Positions 10,230-53,790 of a stretch of 64,000 nt of DNA are shown here, in pieces (the stretch's first letter is position 1; each line of letters begins with the position of its first letter). A model generated the notes under the pieces. The model had not been told where the DNA came from, made no database searches, and saw only the letters and a program-made list of their open reading frames with translations. The stretch covers positions 62,001 through 126,000 of the forward strand of contig JAPEUD010000015.1 in the NCBI GenBank assembly GCA_026026165.1. The letters run 5' to 3'. This DNA is from Sarea resinae (lineage: Eukaryota). The translations under genes were made by a program, and so were the position numbers.

Positions 10230-12100
10230 CATCTGCCCATGAGCCTCAGAAGAAGACCTGTCTTGCTGTGGTCTCTTGATCAATTCTTCCCTATCTACCG
10301 CGAGTGAAAGACATCGGACACACCGCAGAGCATCACATACCATGCCATGCTCTTCATGTCCGCTCCTTTTCTTTGCCTATTTGTCCTATTCCATATTTTC
10401 CCTATTCTCTTCTTGTCTTCTCATAGGAGCGTTATTTTCCCTTTTTGTTTTACTTTCTTCCCCCTCTACATGTCTTGTCATCCGGGAAAGGAAAGGGAGC
10501 AGGCGCGAAAGGTGACATGAACATGACTTGACATGTATGGCAATGGGATAAAATTCGAATGCAAAAAGGCATGTATTTATACAGATCAAAGACCACCCTC
10601 AAAGATGGGGAATTGCGCTTCTTGGTGGTGTTTTTTGTGTCTTTGATTCTTGGGATCCTGAAAGCCTGGTGTTGATATCGCTATTCATATTGATATTGAT
10701 ACTCCTATCAACGAAGCACAGGTAGTATGTGATAAAGACAGGTATCGCAAGTGTCCCGTGTGATCAGTGATCTCGAGAAGAAAGTGATGAGCCCGAGGAG
10801 CTCAGGGCGAGTGAGGAGTAGGCCAGTGTGACAGTGCTACCGTTGTCTTGTCTTCTCTCCTCTTGTCTACTAAGGACAGAAAGCGGGCGAGCATGAGCAC
10901 TAGCACGAGCACGAGCGCCGAGCGGGAAAGAGAAACAAGGAAAAAGAGAAAGAGAAAAAGAGAAAAAGAGAAAAAGCGAAAAAGACAGTGCATGGCCTGG
11001 CCCGGCCCGGCCTGGTCTGGTCACCGACCGACCGACCATCCCAAGAACTTACCTATAATGCCTGACCTGACCTGACCTGACCTGACCTTGGCCTTGACCT
11101 GTCAGAGGACGGACTCTACCTCTTCCCCTACTCTGTGCTATCCTATTCTATTCTATCCATCTATCCTAGTATCTATACTAGACTAGACTTTACTAGACTT
11201 TACTAGACTAGACCATACCGTCTCATATACAACATTTCAGGTAAAATACCCACTATATTTCTTCACCTGCTCTCGAGAAAAAGAGAGAGGGAGGGAGGTG
11301 GAGGGGGAGATCTCAGGAGTCAAGACAGGCCGTTTTACTACTACTCTACTTACTTTCATGATGTGAATTACCACTACCACCACCACCACTACTACTACTA
11401 CTACTACTACTACTACTACTACTAAAAAAAGTACCACCAACACGACCATCTGACCGCGGCATTCGTTTGTTTTCAGCAGTGGGTTATCATAAGATATGTA
11501 AATACACGAGACGAGGGTATGACGTGTAAGCAGCAAAAGTCCAAGTCCAAAACGCCAAAAGAACGCTGGTCCTTGATAATGGTAGTGGCACTGGGCATTG
11601 GGCACTGGGCACTGGAGTACTGGGGTACTGCGGTGCTGGGTGCTGGGTGCTGGGTGCTGGGTGCTGGGTGCTGTGCTGAGTACTGTCAATTGGTAGGTTT
11701 CTGCTATGGGTTGCTGCCTGTCGAATGCAGGCGCAGGTGCAGGTGCAATCGCCGTCACTGGATTCATACCATGCAGTAGAAAGAACAGAACAGAACAGAA
11801 AGAATATGACAACGAAGCCGAGCAACAAGGCCGAGTGAAGCCAAAAAGAAACGAAAAAACACAAAACGCCTTCGTGACTGCATTGATGGGAGTAAACAAG
11901 TCCCGTGATTCCTTTCCCAATCGATGCCGTGCCGTGCCGTGCCGTGCCGTGCCGTTGTGCTCCGACCGAAGAAGCTAAATTGAAATCCAAGCTCCAAGTT
12001 CCGAGTGCATGCGCTGTCTTCATAAAAGGGTCCAGTGTCGTAAACGGAGAAGATGTGAAGGAAAAAGAAAGAAGGAAGGAAAAGGAAACCAAGGCCGGGG
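10230..12100. repeat. Low-complexity/microsatellite island 1 at a convergent gene junction
   Basis: (CCTGA)n ~11060-11090, tactagactt repeats ~11177-11212, (CAC)/(TAC)n 11369-11424, (GGTGCTG)n ~11630-11672, (GCCGT)n ~11925-11954, GA-rich tracts. Confidence 0.85.
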
Positions 12101-12244
12101 ATTTCCAGATCGGGATCGGCATGTTCGCTATCCTGAAAGTTTTTTTTACTGCCAACTTCCATAGGCTACATCCAGGTCTTTCGATATCGTTTGCCGAGGA
12201 CCTTTGCCACCTTGGGGCTGGAGGTAGCTTGGAAACACAGACTA

Positions 12245-52500: not shown

Positions 52501-52701
52501 TCGTCACCTGCCGCACCCGCCGGCCCGGCGGACGTGGAAAGGGACGGCAAGGCGAAGGAGATGCAGACGCAGACGGGGACGGAGACGGAGACGGGAACGG
52601 AGGACTGGAGACGGAAATACGAGGACGTGTGCGCCGTGCTGCGCGAAAAGGAAGACGAGATCTGGCGACTCAGACGGGGCGTTCTGGACGCGGTGATGTG
52701 A
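49598..52701 (+). CDS. abp2: ARS-binding protein 2 (Abp2) family protein
   Basis: DDAYVAFILYCNP...FRSPPRSDGKSF...TWTQLAIELGVEPP...QKVQQYAVRLK|RWMHAMHVDAFFEY; AT-hook-like PKRGRRK and KFRGRPP; intron 50303-50370. Confidence 0.9.
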
Positions 52702-53790
52702 TGTGATGTGATGTGCTGCTATGAGTGTGATAGCTATGAAAGTGATGTGACGGGATGGCATACCGTGCATTTTCTCGCGTTCTGACACCTTCGCTGCTGC
52801 TGCTGCTGCTGCTGCTGCTACTTACCTCTGATTTCGAATTCTGGGTCACGATCAAAGGCTAGGGACAAGGGGGCCGTAGTTTCGATACTCGCGTTCATAT
52901 CCACATTCGCATTCGCATCCACATCGCCCGTTGCCTTGCCCCTGGCGTCTTTTTCTGATGAACTGGGTTTTATCTATCTTCTATTGGTGTTTGATATCAT
53001 TCCACATGATTTGATTTGATTTGATTTCCTCTTATTATTGATTTGCATTGGGTTGGTGCAGTGTGGTTCAGTTTGGCTTGGATGAGCTTGGATTGAATTG
53101 GATTGGATTGGATTGGATTGGTCTTAGTTTAGATTGAATGAGATGAGATGAGATGAGATGGGATCGGTTTAGTTTCTTCAGCTGATTTGGCTGATCTAGT
53201 TGATCTATTATAGCTAGTTGTTTACGGTTTACCACCTATACCTATCTATCTATCTATCTGAAAACTGTCTATCTACAAACCGATCTACAAACCGATCTAC
53301 CTACCTGATTACCTGACCACCTCTCTAGGTACGAACCTGTCTACAAACCTATCTACCTACCTACCTACCTACCTAACTGTCTAACTACCTATCTCCCTCT
53401 CTTTTTCCCTACTAAGCTACTACTAAGCTACTAATAAGCTACTAACCTACCTATATCTCTCTCTACCTCTCTACCGCCCTACCTACAAACCTCTCTCGCT
53501 CTAGATAGTCTCTGTAAATCTCTCTAGAACCTCTCTTGGAAAGGGTACTCACAGGCGGGGTTGGGGTTGGGGTTTCGAAGTCCTTGGATTCATTCATTCA
53601 TTCATTCATTCATTGATTCATTCGGTTCTTTTGGGCGCAAATTTTGAGGGTTTTTTTCTTTTCTTTTTTCTTTTTTCTCCTCAGCTATGGATTCATTTTC
53701 GGGTCGGATATATAAAAAGAGAGGGGAGGGATACTATGTATACCCTGCCCACTTACCCACCTACATCCCCGCCCCCACATCTAATCAAGC
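52702..53790. repeat. Low-complexity/microsatellite island 5 at a convergent gene junction
   Basis: (GATGT)n, (GCT)n, (GATTT/GATTG)n, (GAGAT)n, (CTAT)n, (CTAC)n, ctactaagcta repeats, (ATTC)n; TpA-rich core ~53200-53530. Confidence 0.9.

Follow-up and report, generated by a model that had tools for sequence, protein, structure and literature searches.

Mosaics of short tandem arrays occupy the convergent gene junctions of a 64-kb fungal window

In the 64-kb stretch of fungal DNA analysed here (the window), which belongs to the resin dweller Sarea resinae or to a very near relative of it, all five spacers lying between convergent genes are filled with dense islands of short tandem arrays, which are real and consist of local, mutually unrelated arrays, and within the window the association between these islands and the convergent junctions is strong. 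Among the 19 spacers of the window (5 convergent, 9 tandem and 5 divergent), repeat cover, as called by Tandem Repeats Finder (TRF) at a score of at least 30, amounts to 24–58% in the five convergent spacers and to 0–14% in the 14 others, the two ranges being disjoint (exact Mann-Whitney p = 8.6e-5, 5 vs 14); 57% of the repeat-covered bases of the window fall in the convergent spacers, which account for 12% of its length. As to the mechanism, we infer slippage plus differential constraint.

The presence of repeat mosaics in all five convergent junctions had been claimed in an earlier note on this DNA, and both measures applied confirm it: TRF yields five peaks along the window (~10.5–12.0, 21.0–23.0, 31.5–33.0, 40.5–42.0 and 52.5–54.0 kb), and the same five emerge from an independent measure of local 6-mer recurrence. 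Dinucleotide shuffles of the islands reach a cover of 0.2–1.1% (maximum 4.6%). Gene ends were refined by Pfam, by reading of the sequence and by spliced RNA contigs, and the strand is secure for all ten flanking genes, by Pfam for seven of them and by open frames (697, 724 and 1064+205 codons) for the other three. Gene calling on frame length alone was rejected on account of false opposite-strand calls; a codon-usage model performed better but assigned MARVEL to the opposite strand, and for this gene Pfam and intron structure were decisive instead. The left edge of the window (1–4174), gene-poor and with 8% cover, lies outside the spacer classification.

The first island occupies the convergent spacer at 9936–12247 (TRF cover 0.24) and is composed of 17 short arrays, whose tandem units measure 3–15 nt; it is flanked by a 697-codon open frame on the forward strand, ending at 9935, and by a 724-codon open frame on the reverse strand, ending at 12248, and the open reading frames of at least 70 codons tested within it have no Pfam match. 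The second (21023–23211, cover 0.28) has a perfect (CAGAGCAAGAG)6.7 and a block of the (CCTA) type among its 15 arrays, and separates a long frame at 17247–21022 (forward strand) from the Mak10 gene (reverse strand, Pfam PF04112). In the third (31612–32589, cover 0.58) most of the 16 arrays are built of degenerate CCTAT/TCCTG-type pentamers, and a (TC)n/(GA)n pair in inverted arrangement is found at the centre (32059–32091 and 32164–32202); its neighbours are the RPC82 gene, identified by Pfam and ending at 31611 on the forward strand, and an acyl-CoA synthetase gene on the reverse strand, with its stop codon at 32590–32592. The last exon of the synthetase (32590–32741, reverse strand) is embedded in the repeat zone; its translation, LKLKRPQTVKKHRVDLDRLYAE...KAML followed by the stop, continues the end of the AMP-binding frame (...ELLTPT). 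The repeats of this island, whose extent is hereby corrected with respect to the earlier note, run past that exon into the terminal intron (32742–33258, reverse strand; donor GTAAGT and acceptor CAG, as read from the sequence), which is 517 bp long, has a TRF cover of 0.31 and is packed with arrays of (GT)n, (GTGTGA)n and (GGGA)n. The six RNA-supported introns of the window measure 47–63 bp, and the sole repeat-inflated intron seen adjoins an island. The fourth island (40569–41819, cover 0.44, 15 arrays) follows the MARVEL gene (39858–40568, forward strand, with three canonical introns and a match to Pfam PF01284) and is bordered on its right by the stop codon of a WD40 gene (41820–41822, reverse strand), while the fifth (52702–53792, cover 0.42), seven of whose 15 arrays are perfect, lies between the Abp2 gene, ending at 52701 on the forward strand, and a GH36/raffinose-synthase-like gene, ending at 53793 on the reverse strand, both identified by Pfam.

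Each island has the make-up of a compound microsatellite cluster, with 15–17 non-redundant arrays of different units, many of which abut. Over the five islands there are 78 arrays, with a median length of 29 bp, a median copy number of 3.8 and a maximum length of 135 bp; perfect, hence young, arrays and strongly decayed ones (match of at most 80%) each account for 17 of the 78, a mixture of ages that suggests ongoing birth and decay of arrays. When the five islands were compared with the window by blastn (7 matches with the low-complexity filter, 22 without it), the matches were solely of the (CCTA)n type, plus one of the (CTCxCT)n type, and non-repeat homology among the islands was absent; the islands had previously been said to share no obvious homology, which holds outside the repeats, whereas the (CCTA)n motif family does recur. 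No terminal inverted repeats were detected: four of the five regions have no inverted pair of at least 18 nt, and in the fifth such pairs are internal, repeat against repeat. The stop-to-stop frames of at least 70 codons scanned in the islands gave no Pfam match of any kind, remnants of a transposase or reverse transcriptase included. The proposal that the islands were made independently in place, rather than as copies of a dispersed element, is therefore upheld by the lack of non-repeat homology, of terminal inverted repeats and of Pfam matches in the frames tested. Searches for hidden RNAs returned no tRNA and no Rfam match. A strong purine or pyrimidine bias is seen in many arrays; the purine content of the arrays shows no consistent switch at the island midpoints and no relation to the sense orientation of whichever gene is nearer. 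Six of the 17 G4-type motifs of the window lie inside the islands and none of them in the fifth; the five islands have no motif or structure in common.

Contigs that differ from the window sequence cover parts of three islands. A contig from the source run covering 21800–22706, in the second island, carries two differences. In RNA contigs from an independent study, 5 nt are deleted and 97 nt skipped in the third (~32273–32721), and there are 14 substitutions and 34 gap letters in the fourth (40596–40922). The indels, known from contigs (not reads) of a single related strain, measure 1, 2, 5 and 26 nt inside the arrays of the fourth island and 5 nt, besides the 97-nt skip, in the third. Given that these RNA contigs enter the third and fourth islands with indels, the distal 3' UTRs appear to tolerate changes in length, and since they run well into the islands, the repeats do not seem to halt transcripts at the island edge, although the contigs are unspliced and strandless and may derive from stray library DNA. 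Matches in two runs from other organisms of the source study (X3 and X4) fall mainly in the pentamer block of the third island, and show only that motifs like those of this island occur elsewhere.

The pattern is apparently not a general one. In 30 loci of other Pezizomycotina (537 kb), none of the 19 convergent spacers reaches a repeat cover of 20%, with the junctions there called by an imperfect codon-usage model from frames of at least 200 codons, a result in agreement with the earlier suggestion of a lineage-bound pattern. The 70 Sey1 loci from metagenome contigs in which orthologous junctions were sought all have at most 80% amino-acid identity, and they include no close relative; a tblastn search of these loci found the GH36 gene in none of the 70 and the Abp2 gene in one (L025), whose sequence ends 1.2 kb past the match, and the set yielded no orthologous convergent junction for comparison. 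Most of the spacers outside the convergent class had been regarded as ordinary; they are not entirely so, for their mean cover is ~5%, against 1.2–1.9% in 70 spacers from the same 30 loci, and over the window as a whole cover reaches 7.6%, where the median of 70 loci is 1.1%; the non-coding DNA of this genome is, for these reasons, considered repeat-prone. A divergent spacer of another fungus (L062) carries a comparable repeat mosaic, and such mosaics therefore do not require convergent transcription as such. Nor is spacer length sufficient, since three long non-convergent spacers of the window (1765, 1629 and 1423 bp) have a cover of 6–9%.

The spacing of the islands, previously presented as a feature in itself ('about every 10 kb'), does not stand as such: random gene orientation predicts 4.75 convergent junctions among 19 and five are observed, both their number and their mean spacing being those expected by chance, so that no mechanism needs to be invoked. 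The ~10 kb spacing is the frequency of convergent junctions at this gene density; their evenness (CV 0.12, p = 0.014), which was tested post hoc, is mildly unusual.

The explanation that we prefer, albeit tentatively, is that slippage acts in situ in a genome prone to repeats and that arrays accumulate wherever no promoter limits their growth. The islands would be micro- and minisatellite clusters born in place, through short tandem duplication and slippage during replication, in a setting of unusually repeat-prone non-coding DNA; promoter-bearing spacers would be held short and purged of repeats, and the high cover would be attained solely between convergent genes. A convergent spacer contains two transcript ends and no promoter, and can thus lengthen while its poly(A) sites shift outward at little cost; the swollen intron of the acyl-CoA synthetase gene, likewise promoter-free, speaks for this room to grow. 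Other observations are less easily accommodated, namely the long, repeat-poor non-convergent spacers, the position of the single inflated intron beside an island and, in particular, the contrast observed in the first 150 bp past the stop codon, where cover is 24.5% in convergent genes (n = 10) and 1.5% in tandem ones (n = 9; p = 0.0012): this DNA should be 3' UTR in either case, and the contrast, unpredicted by plain promoter constraint, fits it only if room to grow is added as a further assumption. The same contrast, together with the location of the intron, the occurrence of islands in all five convergent spacers and in none of the 14 others, and their lineage specificity, would be accounted for by a mutagenic process acting at convergent transcription, of which the islands would be the footprint and which would raise local slippage or tandem duplication; candidates are torsional stress with polymerase collision, build-up of cohesin or of meiotic axis proteins, resolution of Holliday junctions there and stalling of replication forks. 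In budding yeast, cohesin and axis proteins are placed at convergent gene ends (PMC4530585) and crossover resolution is said to favour the same sites (bioRxiv 10.64898/2026.03.13.711646). We nevertheless regard such a process as rather unlikely, in view of the absence of strand polarity of the arrays relative to the flanking genes, of a GC content lower in the islands than in other spacers (0.47 vs 0.51) where GC-biased gene conversion would raise it, and of a repeat excess in the adjacent last 700 bp of coding sequence that is not significant (5.0% vs 1.9%, in 10 convergent and 8 tandem genes respectively; p = 0.12); moreover, although yeasts conserve the process, none of the 19 convergent spacers sampled in other Pezizomycotina has an island. 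It is less likely still that the DNA between convergent genes undergoes, in this lineage, a recurrent mutagenic transaction, the islands being a sequence-readable footprint of chromosome-axis or loop-anchor sites and a trait of genome architecture so far undescribed in fungi; the short tandem duplications might then stem from junction resolution at cohesin- or axis-bound sites, from topoisomerase acting under torsional stress or from replication termination. Promoter-free accumulation is simpler and fits about as well as the candidate chromatin or recombination driver.

Chance must also be considered, as a single 64-kb window was studied and the pattern was picked post hoc: genome-wide, islands might occur in long spacers of any orientation, as the divergent mosaic of L062 and the repeats of the gene-poor left edge would suggest, and the window would have drawn attention because five of them chanced to be convergent. 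The complete separation of 5 from 14 spacers and the low cover of the 1.4–1.8 kb non-convergent ones make such a local coincidence improbable, and a selected role for the islands as spacers or terminators appears slightly more so. According to the latter hypothesis, the overlap of convergent transcripts, and hence interference or double-stranded RNA, would be prevented by their added length and by repeats prone to form structures (polypurine/polypyrimidine tracts, G-runs, (GT)n), in keeping with the median length of the convergent spacers (1251 bp here vs 546 bp in other fungi), with the base bias of many arrays and with the share of G4-type motifs within the islands; on the other hand, there is no shared motif or structure, the fifth island is devoid of G4 motifs, RNA contigs extend well beyond the island edge, and the arrays decay, turn over and differ by indels between strains, which looks neutral. 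An origin as degenerate transposon copies or as short-read assembly artefacts is the least credible and may be considered highly improbable: the source-run k-mer contigs, among those listed, do break at the third and fourth islands, where read depth is inflated (1214 vs ~336), but all arrays are at most 135 bp long, below the read length, contigs from the independent study span parts of both islands, and neither shared homology nor terminal inverted repeats nor Pfam matches in the frames tested point to a transposon. The inflated depth fits the sharing of short motifs with the rest of the genome.

If the orientation rule holds genome-wide, a class of spacers defined by orientation alone can evolve a distinct sequence state, which would offer a cheap, sequence-only handle either on the constraint that promoters impose on spacer growth or on the places where cohesin, torsional stress and crossover resolution act on DNA, besides being relevant to marker design and genome assembly in this group; if it fails, the finding reduces to an ordinary repeat-rich stretch. 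A literature search, with most subscription journals outside its reach, returned no paper that links, in fungi, the density of repeats to the orientation of genes and no report of clusters confined to an orientation-defined class of spacers.

Among known systems, the islands come close to clustered microsatellites and to the 'cryptic simplicity' of Tautz, and cohesin-associated regions reportedly lie, after the work of Lengronne and colleagues in 2004, at convergent gene ends in budding yeast; the islands, all five between convergent 3' ends, occupy the corresponding position. With the compound microsatellites described by Kofler et al. 2008 (PMC2644718), the islands share different short arrays set side by side, probably made in place by slippage, decaying and re-expanding, and, to judge from one related strain, apparently polymorphic in length; they differ in having 15–17 arrays per 1–2 kb and in being confined here to one orientation-defined spacer class. 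The cohesin and meiotic axis sites of budding yeast, as presented by Sun et al. 2015 (PMC4530585), have the same 3'-3' position and a frequency of ~1 per 10 kb, but there they are defined by protein binding, without a repeat signature, and the spacing of the islands is that of random gene orientation. A DNA transaction specific to convergent junctions is likewise the subject of Powell et al. 2026 (10.64898/2026.03.13.711646), in which crossover resolution and Top3 activity move to sites of convergent transcription; that work concerns Saccharomyces alone and claims no link to repeat formation, and the islands have no GC enrichment. Finally, the opposed heptamer arrays of bacteria (Rehm et al. 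2015, PMC4692102) are also locus-specific, fill gaps past gene ends and often lie between convergent genes; each locus there has a single 7–8-nt unit, laid out in an inverted pair over 100–800 bp, while the fungal islands combine many unrelated units with no regular inverted layout, the (TC)n/(GA)n pair of the third island being the one inverted pair of this kind.

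The claim of the earlier note that the convergent junctions hold islands of short tandem repeats is confirmed, with small corrections, at all five convergent spacers (islands 1–5, at 9936–12247, 21023–23211, 31612–32589, 40569–41819 and 52702–53792). Arrays were called with Tandem Repeats Finder (TRF; score at least 30, 214 rows over the window); in 500-bp bins, five blocks have 25–59% of their bases in arrays (TRF cover), the rest of the window being mostly at 0–5%, and the identical five blocks emerge from an independent score of how often 6-mers recur within 60 bases, while dinucleotide shuffling of each island leaves 0.2–1.1% cover (maximum 4.6%). 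The five spacers make up 12.2% of the window, yet carry 56.6% of its repeat-covered bases. Each holds 15–17 non-redundant arrays (78 in total; median copy number 3.8, median length 29 bp, longest 135 bp), with units mostly of 4–12 nt, pentamers being the commonest (15 of 78), and with a unit length that is not a multiple of three in 49 cases; young and decayed arrays are intermixed, 17 of the 78 being perfect and 17 matching at 80% or less. An inverted pair, (GTCTCTCT)n at 32059–32091 and (AGAGAGAC)n at 32164–32202, lies about 30 bp or less from the midpoint of island 3 and is the sole such pair across the five islands.

The junction classes depend on the gene map, in which Pfam fixes the strands of 15 genes: SF3b145, RPC82, the MARVEL protein (39858–40568, three canonical introns) and Abp2 on the plus strand; the KDEL receptor, Mak10, M16 peptidase, acyl-CoA synthetase (small last exon at 32590–32741), Cys/Met PLP enzyme, WD40 protein, mitochondrial carrier, GH36-like protein, thioesterase, Sey1 and lipase on the minus strand. 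Open frames without a Pfam family, at 7842–9935 (+), 12248–14419 (−) and 17247–21022 (+), were accepted on length alone. Spliced contigs from an RNA library place minus-strand introns at 26.5–26.7, 27.3 and 36.7–37.1 kb. A Sey1 exon of 454 residues (60753–62117, −) has 99% identity to a protein publicly attributed to Sarea resinae, the next best matches being at 76–77%, which assigns the window to this resin-dwelling ascomycete or to a very close relative. At 39691–40500, in the MARVEL gene, a codon-usage model with long frames as its training set favours the antisense strand, a caution against strand calls from codon bias alone. The first 4.2 kb (1–4174), with no convincing gene, were kept out of the junction classes; this gene-poor tract downstream of the KDEL-receptor gene has 8% TRF cover and GGTA/CCTA-type low complexity, including a (CCTA)12.5 array at 2749–2798, and could represent one more convergent spacer, the sixth and larger than the others, whose left neighbour lies outside the window.

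The 20 genes give 19 junctions. TRF cover is 0.24, 0.28, 0.58, 0.44 and 0.42 in islands 1–5, against 0.00–0.14 in the nine tandem and 0.00–0.09 in the five divergent spacers, so that the ranges of convergent and all other spacers are fully separate (p = 8.6e-5, exact Mann-Whitney test). The classes differ in length too, convergent spacers being the longest (median 1251 bp, against 763 bp for tandem and 532 bp for divergent; convergent against others, p = 0.0097), but length does not account for the repeats, since cover is only 6–9% in non-convergent spacers 1765, 1629 and 1423 bp long, whereas it reaches 58% and 42% in convergent ones 978 and 1091 bp long. The recurrence of islands about every 10 kb, which had been put forward as a feature, needs no explanation, because five convergent junctions are seen and 4.75 are expected for 20 randomly oriented genes. 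Their spacing is even (CV 0.12), to a degree equalled or beaten in 1.4% of random patterns with at least five convergent junctions (p = 0.014, in a test picked after the data had been seen). Between 12248 and 52701, each of the four inter-island blocks consists of two or three minus-strand genes followed by one plus-strand gene.

A positional origin, rather than a dispersed element, is supported: the islands have no terminal inverted repeats, those of their frames of at least 70 codons that were scanned have no Pfam match, tRNA and Rfam searches of them found nothing, and they are homologous neither to each other nor to the rest of the window, the exceptions being (CCTA)n-type arrays common to islands 2, 4, 5 and 2746–2798 and a short match that links island 2 to island 3. 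An assembly artefact is unlikely, because all arrays are shorter than a sequencing read and contigs of an independently studied, related strain span 40596–40922 and about 32273–32721, covering parts of islands 4 and 3, although, among those listed, k-mer contigs of the source study's own run end at these two islands. The RNA-library contig at island 4 begins 28 bases past the MARVEL stop codon, that at island 3 inside the last synthetase exon, and both extend 320–350 bases into repeats; parts of islands 3 and 4 are therefore probably 3' UTR, though stray DNA in the library may be the source of these contigs, which are unspliced and strandless. When they are aligned to the window, island 4 shows indels of 1, 2, 5 and 26 nt and island 3 a 5-nt indel and a 97-nt skip, with up to 14 substitutions in 327 bases; of four coding contigs, three diverge by about 0.7–2.7% and one is identical.

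Seventy Sey1 loci of other Pezizomycotina (849 kb of metagenome contigs) have a median TRF cover of 1.1%, against 7.6% in the window, which is exceeded in just one. In the 30 loci of at least 8 kb left after removal of near-duplicates (537 kb), with junctions called, imperfectly, from long frames passing a codon-usage test, short-unit repeats cover 1.6% of convergent (n = 19; median length 546 bp), 1.2% of divergent (n = 19) and 1.9% of same-strand spacers (n = 32); none of these 70 spacers reaches 20%, and the island pattern thus characterises this lineage or, at the least, this window. The one locus of higher cover has long-period satellites; in L028, satellites of this type (units of 40, 165–174 and 320 nt, at 17200–22816) occupy several kb on the downstream side of Sey1 and differ from the short-unit islands. 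A similar short-array mosaic, with (GAGAG)22, (TGCAC)10.6, (ATGAG)6 and others, occurs at 7500–9900 of L062, in the divergent spacer, 3.5 kb long, that precedes Sey1. The same-strand Sey1–thioesterase neighbourhood is kept in 10 of the 70 loci (L016, L024, L028, L047, L049, L051, L052, L053, L059, L060), the thioesterase is on the opposite strand in L039 and L040, and L025 retains the mitochondrial-carrier/Abp2 pair in its divergent arrangement.

As to how the islands arise, we lean, with somewhat less than even confidence, to a genome that would readily generate short tandem duplications everywhere and could retain them only in promoter-free DNA, so that swelling would occur in convergent spacers, in distal 3' UTRs and in one terminal intron. 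The alternative, held less likely, is a process tied specifically to convergent transcription. Two observations favour it: the 150 bp that follow the stop codon, where cover is 24.5% in the 10 convergent genes against 1.5% in nine tandem ones (p = 0.0012, and p = 0.0007 over 300 bp), and the adjacency to an island of the sole repeat-inflated intron, the terminal intron of the synthetase (32742–33258, −; 517 bp, full of (GT)17.5, (GTGTGA)7.8 and (GGGA)5), six RNA-supported introns elsewhere measuring 47–63 bp. Against it, the arrays show no strand polarity, island GC is 0.47 compared with 0.51 in other spacers, and the excess of repeats in adjoining coding sequence falls short of significance. 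What probability these two readings leave is shared among selection for spacing, local coincidence, and artefact or transposon.

In yeast, published work places cohesin and axis proteins (PMC4530585) and crossover resolution (10.64898/2026.03.13.711646) at convergent sites, and by analogy a process tied to convergent transcription is plausible in this fungus; the yeast mechanisms are conserved, yet the other fungi sampled have no convergent-spacer island, a further point against such a process. Clustered microsatellites are already known; what is notable here is their strict tie to gene orientation.
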